Shown here piece after piece: positions 36,175 to 40,794 of a DNA stretch of 64,000 nucleotides; the stretch's first letter is position 1; every line of letters begins with the position of its first letter. The position numbers and the translations under genes were made by a program. The DNA is from a virus, in the IMG/VR virus record IMGVR_UViG_3300047160_002519, positions 9,234 to 73,233 of that record; one strand, written 5' to 3'. Under the pieces are notes generated by a model that saw only the letters and a program-made list of their open reading frames with translations, had not been told where the DNA came from and made no database searches.

Positions 36175-39100
36175 ATGGCGAACGGTTGGGGTGGACACCG
36201 CAACGGCTCCGGGCGCAAGCGCACGCGCTCCAATGTGATTCCCTTCAAAGCCAAGCCGAAGCTGATCGAGGCCACGGCGATCGAGCGGCCCCGCCCGATG
36301 TTCTCCGACGAATCGGTGCGGCTGATCATTGAAGCGATGAGCGAGCAGCAAGGGCGGGCGCGCAACCGGCCCCGCACGCCCGATTGGAATCCGTACATCA
36401 TCCGCCAGCATCTCTTCGGTGCATCTGCGAATCACATCGCGAGGCACAAGCCACAGATGGCAATGGATGCGAACCCGGCGCTGGCGGACGCCAACGCGGT
36501 CGCGGTGCAGGCGTGGCAGACCGGCGGGCTCGCGGGCAATGACGCGGCCGAAGGGCTGCTGTTCCTGGGCTACCCGTTCCTTTCCGAGATGGCGCAACGT
36601 GCGGAGTTTCGGCTGTTCGGGGAGATCATGTCAGAGGAGATGACCCGCAAATTCATCGACTTCAAAGGGACTGACGACGAATCCACAAAGGATGAGAAAA
36701 AAGACAAGGACAAGGGTCGCGAGGATGATGATGAGCGCGATCAAGACGACATGGCCGGTGATGAGGCCCCGCAACCGCTGTTCGGGGAGGACCCCCTCAA
36801 GCAGGAGGGAGCCGACCCGCTTGGACAGAAGCGCGATGACCCCGAGACCGACAAGGATGAAAAAGAGGCCCGATCCGACGATCGCAATAAGGAGATCGAA
36901 CGCAAGATCGTCGAGCTTCGCGAGTTCGCTGACGACATCAAGCTGCGTCAGGTTTTCAAGATGCTGGCGCAACACGACAGCCAGTTCGGGATCGGTCATC
37001 TCTTCCTCGACTTGAAGGGCGCGAACCTCGACGATCCGCGCGACCCCGAGAACCGGATGGACATTGGTGACGGCCGCAATGACGTCTCGAAGTCCAAGCT
37101 ATCACGGAACTGCTTGAAGGGGCTGCGCACGATCGAGCCGGTGTGGTGCTATCCGACGCTCTACAACGCGACCAATCCGCTGCACCCGTCATGGTACGAT
37201 CCCCAGGTCTGGTACGTGATGGGAAGCGAGATTCACAAGTCGCGACTGATCCCGCTGATCGGCCGCCCGGTGCCCGACATCCTGAAGCCCGCCTATGCAT
37301 TCGGTGGATTGCCGATGACGCAGATGGCGCAGCCCTACGTCGATATCTGGCTGCGCACCCGGCAGAGCGTCGCGGAGATCATCCACGCCTTCTCGGTAAT
37401 GGTGCTGCAAACCAACATGGGCACCACGGTGCAGCCGGGCGGATCGAGCGGCGGCGCGGGCGACGTCGTGGCGCGGATGATGTTGATGAACGCGCTGCGC
37501 GACAACCAGGGCATGATGATCATCGACAAGAGCACCGAGGACTTCAAGAACATCTCGGCTCCGCTCGGCACGCTCGATCAACTGCAGGCGCAAAGCCAAG
37601 AGCACATGTACAGTGTGGCGCGTATCCCGGCGGTAAAATGGACCGGGATTCAACCCCAAGGTCTCAACGCCACGAGCGAAGGCGAAATGCGCGCCTTCAA
37701 CGATACCATCCACGGCTATCAAGAGCAGCTATTCAGGACGGCGCTCAACACCATCGTCGACATCATGATGATCTCGCTGTGGGGCAAGCGGGACCCAGAC
37801 ATCACGTTCGATTTCGCGGCGCTGCACGAGTTGACCGAAAAGGAGCAGGCCGAAGTCGAGAAGATGAAAGCCGAGACCGCGCAAATCCGCGTCGACTCGG
37901 GGATCGTCAGCCAGGAGGAGATCAGGGGCGTCTTGGTCGCGGACCCGGATTCGGATTTCCACGGGTTGGACCCGGAGGACACCCCAGACCTGCTGGGAGA
38001 GGAGGAACAAGGCCTCATCCCCCCAGGCGCAGGGAAGGCCGAACAGGGCATCCTGGGCGCGGGGGGTGCAGGTGGACCGCCCCAGCCCGGAAAGCCCCCA
38101 GGCGGGCCGCCCCAGGGCGGCAAGGGGCCTTTCAACGCGCCTGCCAAGCCCAAGCGGGCACCAGCATTCGGCAAGGACGAAGCCCTGGGCCTTGGAACCG
38201 CGTTCCAAGACGCCGAGGGCAAGGACAAGCTCGGCTACTTCGAAGGCCTGGGCAAATTGGAGGTGATCCCGGACAAGGACCAATGGCACGCGGAATACAT
38301 CAGCGACTCTGACACAATCGAGGTGCAGCGAAAGCTGACGTTCGACCCAGCACAAGAGATCGTCCGGACCTTGCTGCACGAGGCCGGTCACCGGGGCCAG
38401 ATGCGGGAGGACAAGGCGGCCTTCCGGAGGTTCAAGAAGGCCAAGCTCGATACCACAGAGCACTTCGTGGCGCTGGCGAACAACGTCCACCTCGCGGACT
38501 TCCGCTGCACCGGGCACATCGAGGACAAGTCGGGCGAGATTTTCTCGGAGAGCTATGCGCACTGGTGTCTCGACATGCCAATGCCGGAGAAGCTGCAGCG
38601 GTTCTGGGACCGCGAGGGCGGTGATCCGATGGCGATGGATGCCGAGTGGGATGAGAGCAAGCATCCGCGCGATAAGAGCGGCAAGTTCGGCTCCGGCGGC
38701 GGGGGTGGGGCAAAAAAAGCTGAAGGCGCGGGAGCCGCCAAGCCAAAAGCCTCCCACCACGGCGGGCCGAACGCGAGCCCGCAGAAGCCGTTCGCTCCGC
38801 TGCACCCGTCGAGCCTGACGAAGGTCTCGGGCAAGATGGGATCGAACGAGGGGGGCGTCTACAAGGACAAGGGCGGGCAGGAATACTACGTCAAGCAACC
38901 GAAGTCGGCGGCACACGTCACCAACGAGAACACCGCTGCGCGGCTCTACCAACTCACGGGCGCGCATACGCTCGAATACATGGATGCCGGGCCGAAACAC
39001 GTCGCGACGAAGCTGGAGAAGCTCGTCGCGAACAACGTCAGCCAAATGACGTCCGAGGAGAAAAAGACCGCGCAAAAGGACTTCATGACGCACGCATGGC

Positions 39101-40794
39101 TGGGCAATTGGGATGCGGCTGGGATGGGCGGCGACAATCAGGGTGTCCTCAACGGCAAAGTCACGACGCTCGATGTCGGCGGATCGCTGCTGTTCCGGGC
39201 ACAGGGCGAACCGAAGGGCGACAAGTGGGGACCGAAGGTTAGCGAGACGCTCACGCTGCTCGACTCTGGCATGAACCCGGACACGGCGGCGCTGTTCGGC
39301 GGCATGACGAAGGATGAGAAGATCGCCAGCGCCAAGCAAGTCACGGAAATTCCGAACAACGCGATCCGCGAGGTGGTCGCTGCGGGCGGGATGGATGAGG
39401 AGATGGCGAACACGCTGATCGCGCGCAAGAACGATATCGCGGCGCAAGTCGGCCTGACACCTGCGGGCGACACCAATCCTGAGTGGGAAGCGCTGCACCC
39501 GCGCGGTCCTGGCGGCAAGTTCGTGGCCAAGCCGGGCGGCGAGGAGCCTGCCGGATTGGGCGGCAACGAGCCGAGCCCGACCCCGCAGTTCAAAACTAAG
39601 AAGGAATTGGTCGGGCATCTGCTCTCGAACCCCGATGGCGTGACGATGGCCGAGGTGCTCAAGCAGACCGGCTGGCCGTCCGTCTCGATGAATGCCCAGG
39701 CGGCTGCGATGGGAATGAAACTCGAGAAAAAGAAGGTCGGCGGCGAGGTGAAGTACTTCGGCACGCCGATGACGGACGCCGAGAAGGCCGATCTCAAGAA
39801 CAAAGCAAAAGCGAAGCTGGCGAAATCAGCCGCGCCCATTGCGCCCGCGCCGCCACCGAAGCCTGCAGCAAGCGAGTTTCCGACCCCGAGCCCGGAGGAG
39901 GCGACAAAAGCCAAGAAGGGCACGCCACTCAAGATGGCCTACATCCCCGAGCCGAAGCCATTGGTCAAAGCCAATTTCGACATCGCTGAGAAGATCATCA
40001 AAGGCTTCAATGATAAGTGGGCGGGCAAAGAACTGACTGATCCGAAGGAGATCGCGCAGAAGGTTTTTCATTTCAAGCAGATCGCGGGCGCAATCAACGA
40101 TATCGGGGCGCAGGAGCAAAAGGATAAGCAGGCCAAGCAGGCGGTCGAGCAGAAAAAGGCCGCCGAGGAACTCAAGAAAACGCAGGCATCGCAGAAGGGC
40201 CAACTCGATGCCTACATGAAGGAACTGGGCATCACCGCGAGCGAGGCACAGGGCTTCCTCGCGCTCGCCAATATGCACGCGGGATCGAAGGGCGATCTGG
40301 TCAAGAAGTTTCAGAGCTACAAGGATCAGGCGGGAAACCTCGGGCTGCCGATCTCGGGATTCCAGTACGCACTCTTGCAGGACTACATCGACGGCGGCTA
40401 CGGCACGATCAACAAGGCGCTACGTGAGGGCGTGATCAGCCAGGAACAGCACGTCTACACCAAGATGATGAACAAGGCGCTCGATGCCTTCCCGAAGTTC
40501 GAAGGCATGCTGTCACGCGGCACGCATCTCTCCAACCAAGACATCGCGCGCTACAAGCCGGGCCATGTCATCACGCACCATTCGTTCACCTCGGCTGGCG
40601 AAGGCTTCAGTTTCGGCGGCAACGTCCACTACAAGATCAAGGCGATCGGCAAGCGCGGCGCGAACGTGCAGGCGGTCAACCCGCACGAGAAGGAAATCAT
40701 CTTCAAGGCCAACACGCAGTTCTTGGTCAAGAGCGTCGAGACCAAGGGCGGCAAGACCACCATCGAGCTAGAGGAGATGGAGGACTATGGCTAA
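36175..40794 (+). CDS. DUF1073-type portal fused to Zn-metallopeptidase, kinase-like, DUF3489 wHTH and ADP-ribosyltransferase domains
   Basis: Portal motifs FLGYPFLSEMAQRAE, IHKSRL, KPAYAFGG, GLNATSEGE; HEAGH + EIFSE; YYVK..NE..WLGNWD..LDVGG; INKALR, LSRG, SFTS, EKE. Confidence 0.9.
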   Translation: MANGWGGHRNGSGRKRTRSNVIPFKAKPKLIEATAIERPRPMFSDESVRLIIEAMSEQQGRARNRPRTPDWNPYIIRQHLFGASANHIARHKPQMAMDANPALADANAVAVQAWQTGGLAGNDAAEGLLFLGYPFLSEMAQRAEFRLFGEIMSEEMTRKFIDFKGTDDESTKDEKKDKDKGREDDDERDQDDMAGDEAPQPLFGEDPLKQEGADPLGQKRDDPETDKDEKEARSDDRNKEIERKIVELREFADDIKLRQVFKMLAQHDSQFGIGHLFLDLKGANLDDPRDPENRMDIGDGRNDVSKSKLSRNCLKGLRTIEPVWCYPTLYNATNPLHPSWYDPQVWYVMGSEIHKSRLIPLIGRPVPDILKPAYAFGGLPMTQMAQPYVDIWLRTRQSVAEIIHAFSVMVLQTNMGTTVQPGGSSGGAGDVVARMMLMNALRDNQGMMIIDKSTEDFKNISAPLGTLDQLQAQSQEHMYSVARIPAVKWTGIQPQGLNATSEGEMRAFNDTIHGYQEQLFRTALNTIVDIMMISLWGKRDPDITFDFAALHELTEKEQAEVEKMKAETAQIRVDSGIVSQEEIRGVLVADPDSDFHGLDPEDTPDLLGEEEQGLIPPGAGKAEQGILGAGGAGGPPQPGKPPGGPPQGGKGPFNAPAKPKRAPAFGKDEALGLGTAFQDAEGKDKLGYFEGLGKLEVIPDKDQWHAEYISDSDTIEVQRKLTFDPAQEIVRTLLHEAGHRGQMREDKAAFRRFKKAKLDTTEHFVALANNVHLADFRCTGHIEDKSGEIFSESYAHWCLDMPMPEKLQRFWDREGGDPMAMDAEWDESKHPRDKSGKFGSGGGGGAKKAEGAGAAKPKASHHGGPNASPQKPFAPLHPSSLTKVSGKMGSNEGGVYKDKGGQEYYVKQPKSAAHVTNENTAARLYQLTGAHTLEYMDAGPKHVATKLEKLVANNVSQMTSEEKKTAQKDFMTHAWLGNWDAAGMGGDNQGVLNGKVTTLDVGGSLLFRAQGEPKGDKWGPKVSETLTLLDSGMNPDTAALFGGMTKDEKIASAKQVTEIPNNAIREVVAAGGMDEEMANTLIARKNDIAAQVGLTPAGDTNPEWEALHPRGPGGKFVAKPGGEEPAGLGGNEPSPTPQFKTKKELVGHLLSNPDGVTMAEVLKQTGWPSVSMNAQAAAMGMKLEKKKVGGEVKYFGTPMTDAEKADLKNKAKAKLAKSAAPIAPAPPPKPAASEFPTPSPEEATKAKKGTPLKMAYIPEPKPLVKANFDIAEKIIKGFNDKWAGKELTDPKEIAQKVFHFKQIAGAINDIGAQEQKDKQAKQAVEQKKAAEELKKTQASQKGQLDAYMKELGITASEAQGFLALANMHAGSKGDLVKKFQSYKDQAGNLGLPISGFQYALLQDYIDGGYGTINKALREGVISQEQHVYTKMMNKALDAFPKFEGMLSRGTHLSNQDIARYKPGHVITHHSFTSAGEGFSFGGNVHYKIKAIGKRGANVQAVNPHEKEIIFKANTQFLVKSVETKGGKTTIELEEMEDYG

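Follow-up and report, generated by a model that had tools for sequence, protein, structure and literature searches.

To our knowledge, almost everything known about effectors packaged in phage heads comes from T4 Alt, N4 vRNAP and P1 Dar. Alt and the other internal proteins of T4 carry a capsid targeting sequence (CTS), are cut by the gp21 prohead protease, which cleaves after Glu (L/I-x-E), and are injected with the DNA. Polyvalent proteins, including the MPTase-PolyVal clade of metallopeptidases, were described by Iyer 2017 (PMC5512222), where fusion to a portal or MuF protein is read as a sign of head packaging, and Iyer 2022 (PMC9503650) reports Nudix and ADP-ribosyltransferase (ART) domains fused to MuF, to portals and to the capsid-processing peptidase. 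In the available text of these two papers the domains fused to portals are PBECR, 2H, InPase, Nudix and ART, and Iyer 2017 notes in BcepF1 the portal-InPase fusion that Pseudomonas phage PB1 also has. MuF toxins were described by Jamet 2017 (PMC5576092). Here we analyse a window of 64,000 nucleotides, bases 9234-73233 of IMG/VR record IMGVR_UViG_3300047160_002519, in which one open reading frame (ORF) encodes a phage portal protein followed by ~900 residues of cargo with the signatures of a peptidase, a protein-kinase-like domain, a winged helix-turn-helix (wHTH) and an ART. The record, 73,233 bp of viral sequence flanked by direct terminal repeats, has a CheckV completeness of 100%, and the source of the ORF is a complete, uncultured, 73-kb PB1-like soil phage. 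From the PB1-like head and a G+C content of 60.7%, its hosts are likely to be soil Proteobacteria.

The portal-cargo arrangement is a large and well-preserved instance of this published theme. As in polyvalent proteins, several unrelated enzymes, a zincin MPTase and an ART among them, are joined in one chain within the terminase-portal module; in the sense of Iyer 2017 the protein is itself polyvalent, with peptidase, kinase-like, wHTH and ART domains behind a portal in a single viral ORF. As in the systems of Iyer, too, the portal fusion can be read as a sign of packaging and injection, and a Nudix domain sits on a capsid-processing protein of the same genome. An initial annotation, made from the sequence alone, had set carriage on the portal against the established carriage of toxins on MuF; given the portal fusions of Iyer 2017 and 2022 and the portal-InPase of the cultured phage PB1, portal-fused effectors are not new. 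What is new relative to the literature found is the kinase family and a cassette that recurs at the junctions between cargo domains: a search with most subscription journals outside its reach yielded no description of the kinase family, of a portal-kinase fusion or of an AxD-plus-HPR...GKF junction. A portal fused to a kinase of this type is not mentioned in the available text of Iyer 2017 and 2022, the string 'HPR' is absent from the main text of Iyer 2017 (its supplementary files lying outside the comparison), and 'kinase' has 0 occurrences in the available text of Jamet 2017. Our preferred reading, which we regard as probable, is that the cargo is packaged in twelve copies on the portal ring, and that its kinase and wHTH-ART pieces are freed by a protease, ejected, and put to use in modifying the host early in infection.

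The Pbunavirus phages PB1, E217 and Pa193 share with this phage the PF06381 portal family, the order of the head genes and a C-terminal enzyme on the portal. In PB1 gp18 (769 residues; record 9111-11420), PF06381 is joined to an InPase domain, PF18823, at residues 639-757. PB1 differs in having a single cargo domain of ~120 residues where the present phage has a 900-residue train, and its portal bears no HPR tag, kinase, ART or peptidase. The cargo region of the Pbunavirus portals is not resolved in the cryo-electron microscopy maps, and the available text of the structure papers does not discuss its fate. We also note that Pbunavirus is a genus of therapeutic phages, and that the portal InPase lies beyond residue 528, the last one built in the E217 and Pa193 models.

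The portal-cargo open reading frame

The ORF is one stop-free frame of 1539 codons, in agreement with the uninterrupted ~1540 residues initially reported, and a coordinate check of the translation found every motif named in the initial annotation at its position. The features of the ORF are:

36175-40794, + strand: the portal-cargo ORF, 1539 residues (open frame; public copies; soil contigs with 0 differences)
36175-36468, + strand: basic N-terminal segment, residues 1-98, ending in MAMD at 36457-36468 (motif; comparison with Pa193 and PB1)
36877-37884, + strand: portal core PF06381 (Pfam, phrog_146, E217/Pa193 gp19)
38020-38244, + strand: Gly/Pro-rich linker, residues 616-690 (sequence, motif scans)
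38212-38658, + strand: zincin-like metallopeptidase, residues 680-828 (HEAGH, EIFSE; MPTase-PolyVal; structure model and its VIA matches)
38377-38391, + strand: HEAGH, residues 735-739
38536-38550, + strand: EIFSE
38629-38688, + strand: junction 1, with MAMD (38629-38640), AEWDESK-HPRDKSGKF (HPR at 38662) and a Gly run (motif scans)
38812-39459, + strand: protein-kinase-like domain, residues ~880-1095 (structure model, VIA, Foldseek, invariant residues)
38839, + strand: GSNEGG
38884, + strand: YYVK
39097-39114, + strand: WLGNWD
39169, + strand: LDVGG
39460-39522, + strand: junction 2, with PAGD (39460-39471) and TNPEWEAL-HPRGPGGKF (HPR at 39496) (motif scans)
39586-39741, + strand: DUF3489-like wHTH, residues 1138-1189 (borderline in Pfam)
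39937-40299, + strand: conserved helical region, residues 1255-1375, 5' of the ART (detectable by BLAST in 66 of 120 relatives)
40300-40791, + strand: R-S-ExE ADP-ribosyltransferase, residues 1376-1539 (R1448, S1473, E1505, E1507)
40510-40521, + strand: LSRG, with the R codon at 40516
40582, + strand: SFTS
40687-40695, + strand: EKE

A public protein collection and the ESM Atlas each contain an identical 1539-residue sequence, so that gene callers have picked the same ATG; an alternative GTG start is possible 19 codons 5' of it. Contigs of four soil-metagenome runs, which cover the ORF in part, none of them at full length, and of which one run may be the source sample, show 0 substitutions and 0 indels wherever they cover it. 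A 735-nt contig passes through portal, linker and peptidase (37969-38703) and a 371-nt contig through the kinase-wHTH junction (39312-39682), each with 0 differences, and the event that the initial annotation had named as fatal to it, a stop or frameshift splitting the ORF, is absent from the parts covered.

Relatives of the cargo give a second view of the fusion. In a word-indexed search with cargo residues 640-1539, 133 proteins matched at E <= 0.001, 120 of which were listed; the domain counts out of 120 are from BLAST mapping of seven ORF segments onto these 120 proteins, the query included. The kinase was found in 118 and the ART in 84; the portal core (75), the helical region (66) and the wHTH (46) were less frequent. 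Portal and cargo stand in one frame in 75 of the 120, with 45-83% identity in the portal, and this, together with contigs that bridge the junctions without differences, argues that the fusion is no accident of assembly. It is in our judgement highly improbable that the long ORF is a normal portal gene joined to a separate polyvalent-protein gene, through an error of assembly or a frameshift or stop that went uncalled, or that ribosomes terminate or slip in the linker and so produce mostly bare portals. Homopolymer runs (C6 at 38019, G6 at 38061 and A7 at 38712) do lie at the portal-linker and junction-1 boundaries, such runs being the only sign of slippage or programmed frameshifting in the linker, and depth in the public runs is low, with the full ORF spanned by no single contig; against this, the frame is preserved in the 75 relatives, the 735-nt contig comes from another run, no indel is seen wherever the ORF is covered, and cargo is fused to PB1-type portals as well.

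The N-terminal part is a DUF1073-type portal, as had been proposed. PF06381 (Phage_portal_3/DUF1073) matches residues 235-570 at E 9e-66, with 222.4 bits against a cut-off of 33.8, phrog_146 ('portal protein') matches residues 92-613 at E 7e-88, and the solved dodecameric portals of E217 (gp19, PDB 8fvh) and Pa193 (gp19, PDB 9b41) match the ORF at E 5e-33. The E217 portal model comprises residues 97-528 of 765, and the helical barrel at its C-terminal end points into the interior of the head (E217 paper); that of Pa193 was built for residues 94-528. The cargo of the present ORF begins where this barrel region ends. Since the barrel points inward and the cargo is attached at its end, twelve copies of the cargo would be expected inside the procapsid, built into its interior without a separate targeting signal, if the solved homologues are a guide. 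The initial annotation had likewise placed the cargo in the head; the inward barrel of E217 supports this, and packaging itself we infer. Residues 1-98 are probably a propeptide lost at maturation: they end in MAMD, the PB1 portal has AMD at residues 74-76, and the first 93 residues of the Pa193 portal are missing both from the map and from liquid chromatography-mass spectrometry (Pa193 paper).

We also note a long, highly acidic insertion rich in Asp, Glu and Lys (residues ~165-240; 36667-36900, +) that precedes the PF06381 core and has no counterpart in the E217 and Pa193 portals where these align.

The cargo domains

The catalytic signatures of the peptidase, the kinase-like domain and the ART are intact and are conserved in relatives. 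The kinase-like block named in the initial annotation is well supported by modelling: the AlphaFold2 (AF2) model of the domain, from an alignment of 29 sequences, has a pLDDT of 93.9 and a pTM of 0.91. Its nearest structure in VIA is CtkA (3akj_A; Z 13.7, root-mean-square deviation (rmsd) 3.5, 198 aligned), followed by CotH (12.3), PI4KIIalpha (11.7), actin-fragmin kinase (AFK; 10.8), HipA (10.4) and MavQ (10.3), and Foldseek returns CtkA with a TMq of 0.58 and, at E <= 0.001, no fewer than 500 matches to kinases. With CtkA/HipA, CotH, PI4KII and AFK the domain shares the order Gly-rich loop, Lys, Glu, catalytic Asp, Asn and DxG, which are here the GSNEGG loop, K907, E918, D980 (in NWD), N988 (in DN) and D1000 (in LDVGG); the roles are putative assignments from motif order and the secondary structure of the model. 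The usual catalytic loop of kinases has the form D-x-H-x-x-N, and the spacing between catalytic Asp and Asn is longer here. In the 29-sequence alignment, and in its numbering, K38, E49, D111 and D131 are invariant and conservation is 90% or more at G20, S21, N22, G25, D118 and N119; a set of 240 sequences has the same pattern of conservation.

Family databases do not recognize this kinase. There is no Pfam match at E <= 10, PF00454 (PI3_PI4_kinase) included, no NCBIfam match at E <= 1 other than noise, and no match to T7 kinase in PHROGs. The sole link to PF00454 is one look-alike cluster in the ESM Atlas, 16% of whose members carry that domain. An HMMER scan with the kinase domain matched 3832 clusters at E <= 1e-3, of which 2432 reach E <= 1e-10. 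The polyvalent-protein kinase clade of Iyer 2017 (PMC5512222) has lost the whole C-terminal subdomain, has an insert between the catalytic His and Asp, and is typical of (pro)phages of Verrucomicrobia-Chlamydia and Bacteroidetes; the present kinase, in contrast, comes from a PB1-like phage and its model retains a helical C-lobe (helices 155-223), which argues against membership in that clade.

The C-terminal domain is an ART with R, S-x-T-S and E-x-E motifs, as first described. It matches Tre1 of the Serratia proteamaculans type VI secretion system (T6SS; PDB 6dre/6drh), with E 3e-6 to 6dre_B, and Vis, with E 2.9e-4; its R-S-ExE signature aligns residue for residue with both, R1448, S1473 and E1505-x-E1507 falling on the R, STS and ExE positions of Tre1. 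Tre1 and Vis are arginine-specific mono-ARTs, in part by their PDB names. Conservation at the four positions is high among 132 aligned relatives (R 131, S 131, E1505 117 and E1507 132). PF03496 (ADPrib_exo_Tox), which many relatives carry, scores 20.2 bits in this protein, below its cut-off of 23.4. The match to Tre1 extends over only ~130 residues at low identity. The present locus lacks a PAAR or T6SS setting, and a gene for immunity of the ARH type was not found.

That the closest ART is an interbacterial T6SS toxin bears on a further reading, in which the protein is a polymorphic toxin akin to those on MuF, serving competition or lysis-lysogeny, with a small neighbouring gene for its immunity protein. 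An acidic ORF of 88 residues (40787-41053, +) does overlap the portal stop codon, and roles of this kind are proposed for MuF toxins in Jamet 2017 (PMC5576092), which, like the present cargo, combine an ART and a metallopeptidase with a head protein and are proposed to be delivered with the DNA. We consider this reading very unlikely. In MuF toxins the carrier is the minor head protein that adjoins the portal, whereas here the portal itself is the carrier and MuF, at 260 residues with PF04233 and no cargo domain, is as bare as the initial annotation had it. For the 88-residue ORF, Pfam, PHROGs and NCBIfam gave no family match, and tblastn at E <= 1 gave no relative among 80 related viral loci; its assignment as an immunity protein is unsupported, though not disproved. 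The order and identity of the cargo domains are conserved rather than polymorphic at the tip (kinase in 118/120 relatives, ART in 84/120), and the record, which has terminal repeats, represents a free phage genome.

The first cargo domain (residues 680-828) is a zincin-like peptidase, judged from its motifs and its model, and the motifs of the gluzincin-type Zn site initially proposed are in place, with HEAGH followed by EIFSE. The AF2 model has a pLDDT of 84.9 from an alignment of 5 sequences, two of the five models being poor (pLDDT 53.5 and 43.6). It shows three strands (15-19, 27-30 and 35-39 in model numbering), HEAGH (56-60) within a helix (47-66), and E109 and E113 within a later helix (106-119), the layout of HExxH helix, later Glu helix and three strands by which Iyer 2017 (PMC5512222) describes the zincin fold; HEAGH and the two Glu are invariant in 5/5 sequences. 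VIA aligns the model with anthrax LF, both in its N-terminal domain (Z 8.8, rmsd 5.0, 127 aligned) and in its catalytic domain (8.5), and further with PPEP-2 (7.7), PprI (6.8) and abylysin (6.5), Z values that are middling; the best 50 structural matches are mostly zincin-type metallopeptidases. Foldseek gave no match in the PDB at E <= 0.001, the best having E 0.026. MPTase-PolyVal (PF18818) reaches 23.9 bits (E 4.7e-5) on the cut segment and 19.8 bits on the whole protein, below its cut-off of 27.5, and the homologue search found four clear relatives only.

Between the kinase and the ART lie two further segments. The DUF3489-like wHTH expected here was recovered as a borderline Pfam match, PF11994 scoring 30.0 bits on the cut segment and 23.7 on the whole protein against a cut-off of 29.5. 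The conserved helical region at residues 1255-1375 has no Pfam match below E 0.01. We note that a stand-alone gene elsewhere in the window (25461-25580, -) resembles the wHTH of the cargo, with 37.5% identity over 40 residues (E 7e-6).

Junctions, head proteins and proposed release of the cargo

The ORF lies in a head module with the order TerL, portal-cargo, 88-residue ORF, MuF, Nudix-DUF2213, a 322-residue minor head protein and major capsid protein, which is the order in PB1. The members that matter for what follows are:

31182-32504, + strand: large terminase (phrog_2, E 4e-30)
42027-42809, + strand: MuF head-morphogenesis protein, 260 residues (PF04233, E 2.7e-12; phrog_324, E 1e-64), with MAMD at residue 51
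44319-46757, + strand: Nudix and DUF2213 putative head protease/scaffold, 812 residues (PF00293, E 2e-21; PF09979; phrog_2229, E 9e-106)
47800-48951, + strand: major capsid protein, 383 residues (phrog_264, E 8e-50 from residue 70), with LIMAMD|APNP at residues 50-53 (nt 47947)

A short motif, [LM]A[LM]D, links the cargo to these proteins. Six-frame translation of the window contains it nine times, of which seven fall within the reading frames of four head proteins: the portal (residues 95 and 819), MuF (51), Nudix-DUF2213 (227, 735 and 786) and the capsid protein (50). The four proteins, 2994 residues together, would hold 0.22 motifs on average after shuffling, with 0 of 20000 shuffles reaching 7, and 14 control ORFs (6296 residues) hold none. 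The motif of the capsid protein, which lies ~20 residues ahead of the start of the PHROG match, is kept in 10/10 related loci (AMDA in 9, AADA in 1). In PB1, too, AMD or ALD is found near the portal N-terminus, in the portal-cargo linker (ALD at residues 588-590, between barrel and InPase), in the capsid protein (AMD at residues 62-64) and in the DUF2213 protein. The first 65 residues of the E217 capsid protein are invisible and may be cleaved, the model starting at residue 66 (E217 paper); it therefore begins two residues past the motif, which fits cleavage after the Asp. By the same argument, the ALD in its linker suggests that the InPase of PB1 may be cut off inside the head.

Within the cargo the motif opens a longer cassette. 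MAMD822 is followed by AEWDESKHPRDKSGKF and then a Gly run, and the weaker PAGD1099 by TNPEWEALHPRGPGGKF. The pattern HPR..G.F occurs at least once in 90 of the 120 relatives, with 136 motifs in total, and usually has [AG]-x-D 7-10 residues before it and Gly-rich sequence after it. Motif scans show neither an [LM]A[LM]D site nor an HPR tag in the linker at residues 616-690. Because a motif of the capsid-maturation type recurs at two cargo junctions, release of the cargo is plausible.

These observations can be assembled into a proposed course of events. The chain of portal, Gly/Pro linker, zincin, junction, kinase, junction, wHTH, helical region and ART would enter the procapsid on the portal ring, and a head maturation protease, probably the DUF2213 domain, would cut after sites of the [LM]A[LM]D type, one cut trimming the capsid protein and another removing portal residues 1-98. 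Cuts at MAMD822 and at the weaker AGD1099 would free a kinase fragment (~residues 823-1099) and a wHTH-ART fragment (~residues 1100-1539), each beginning with the conserved [FW]xE..HPRxxxGKF-Gly peptide. The peptidase, with no canonical cut site or HPR tag between it and the portal, probably remains on the portal ring, or may help to cut the adjoining junction. By analogy to T4 Alt and to the polyvalent-protein model, the freed fragments would leave with the DNA, and at the onset of infection would phosphorylate and Arg-ADP-ribosylate host proteins, for takeover or counter-defence. The claim that about twelve copies of every effector are ejected is thus narrowed: release is plausible for the kinase and the wHTH-ART, and the peptidase probably stays behind. 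T4 Alt offers the parallel of a head-packaged ART delivered at infection, and of release by the protease that matures the head, at a short consensus that the cargo has in common with the capsid protein; for such release the present evidence is the motif. The systems differ in that an N-terminal CTS, through its binding to the scaffold core, directs T4 cargo to the head whereas the cargo here would be brought in by portal fusion, in copy number, and in a putative cleavage motif that ends here in Asp rather than Glu.

Tethering of the cargo would make a different protein of it: covalently held on the portal and never injected, it would act late in the producer cell or within the capsid, for instance by modifying phage or host proteins during assembly, by conditioning the packaged DNA or by plugging the portal. 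No cut site separates portal and peptidase, PAGD at junction 2 is non-canonical, the invisibility of the 237 C-terminal residues of the E217 and Pa193 portals, InPase included, fits a flexible tether as well as cleavage, and Iyer 2022 (PMC9503650) also considers a role in countering immune systems directed at the packaging apparatus. We nevertheless find tethering unlikely, since the capsid-maturation motif stands exactly at a junction (MAMD822), a cassette found in 90/120 relatives is hard to explain if it is left uncut, and the kinase and wHTH-ART would sit in a DNA-filled head without a supply of NAD+ or ATP and without substrates.

Several points weigh against release and early host modification as we propose it. 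The authors of the E217 and Pa193 structures regard the missing N-termini as possibly disordered rather than cut, and in the available text of the Pa193 paper the DUF2213 homologue is a putative scaffolding protein and a protease is not mentioned. PHROGs and RefSeq (PB1 gp22) do label DUF2213 'head maturation protease', and it is from these database names that we presume the domain is probably a protease; among PDB sequences the Nudix-DUF2213 protein matches only Pa193 gp24, a 'scaffolding protein' (E 4.6e-8). PAGD at junction 2 deviates from [LM]A[LM]D. In the whole protein, MPTase-PolyVal, PF03496 and DUF3489 all fall below their Pfam cut-offs, and the peptidase, present in 4/120 relatives, is not core to the system. 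The kinase fold is no proof of a protein substrate: lipid kinases (PI4KII and MavQ) and CotH/Fam20 are among its nearest neighbours, and the substrate may be other than a protein. Finally, we infer cleavage, ejection, enzyme activity and targets alike, for this phage and for its portal-kinase-ART relatives.

Two other genes of the window deserve mention. The DUF2213 protein has an N-terminal Nudix domain, a Cys-rich stretch and its own set of three [LM]A[LM]D sites, and thus resembles a second carrier of cargo within the module. Upstream, at 23479-25236 (+), a ParB-like nuclease domain is fused to a DNA methyltransferase (phrog_498, E 2e-131), a pair typical of polyvalent and anti-restriction proteins.

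Distribution of the kinase module and its meaning

Other matches of the cargo search carry the kinase on DUF2213-Nudix proteins, on MuF or on WGR-containing giant proteins. A single-protein scan of IMG/VR with the kinase domain found no close relatives, and a profile scan of the same collection found 480 stretches that encode relatives; among the best 80 of these 480 loci the portal is in the same reading frame in 27, several ORFs being truncated by contig ends. In a cultured-phage collection, 0 of 725 records cover 80% of the portal-cargo protein. The kinase module itself does occur in isolated phages, among them Gordonia phages, Pakpunavirus-like phages and Yersinia phage fHe-Yen8-01. In the last of these, the 2146-residue gp129 is annotated in the record as 'ADP-ribosyltransferase toxin; phage particle associated protein', and by this annotation the module is virion-associated in a cultured phage.

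In BFVD the kinase fold is shared by an HK97-type portal (A0A6J5S481, 'Phage portal protein, HK97'), by a Mycobacterium phage ART and by a haloarchaeal virus protein (R4T6E8, 1100 residues, Haloarcula hispanica tailed virus 1); from the first and last of these, the module may also be carried by portals of other families and extend to viruses of archaea. Among bacterial genomes in GTDB, 301 stretches match the kinase, and 79 of the best 80 are short ORFs: 32 of these 80 loci share one N-terminal domain, and the remainder are mostly solo ORFs of ~230-300 residues. In Rhodobacter capsulatus (L098:5428-6684) this shared N-terminal domain is a dual-specificity (DSP)/PTP-type phosphatase (PF22784, PF22785), and the gene adjoins a TRAP transporter.

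A broader interpretation of the cassette, more tentative, we hold to be possible though doubtful. The junction (hydrophobic-[AG]-x-D, then [FW]-x-E-x-x-HPR-x-x-x-G-K/Q-F, then a Gly run) may be a portable 'cut-and-tag' module, used across many phage lineages to load any enzyme on a portal, MuF or protease/scaffold protein, with kinases as its main passengers. The peptide left at the new N-terminus by the head protease might then direct retention close to the portal or passage out through it, and the injected kinases might provide broad counter-defence in the first minute of infection, an effect like that of T7 kinase but delivered ready-made. T7 kinase, which disarms many defence systems by phosphorylation (PMC13645617), is a functional analogue and no relative, and it is the product of an expressed early gene, not a packaged protein. 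If it works in this way, the cassette could be used to load phage heads with proteins of choice.

Of all phage proteins, effectors packaged in the head are those that a host encounters first. The present locus offers a testable model for them, in which the dose of enzyme would be fixed, at twelve copies, by the portal ring, without a separate targeting system, and it further proposes a way in which the enzymes come free. The predicted cuts are exact to the residue, after D98, D822 and D1099 in this protein and after D64 in capsid proteins of the PB1 type, and can be checked in existing mass-spectrometry data on virions of therapeutic Pbunaviruses. The kinase domain is among the commonest unannotated modules of the giant head-associated proteins of phages, and its substrate, once defined, would annotate thousands of proteins.

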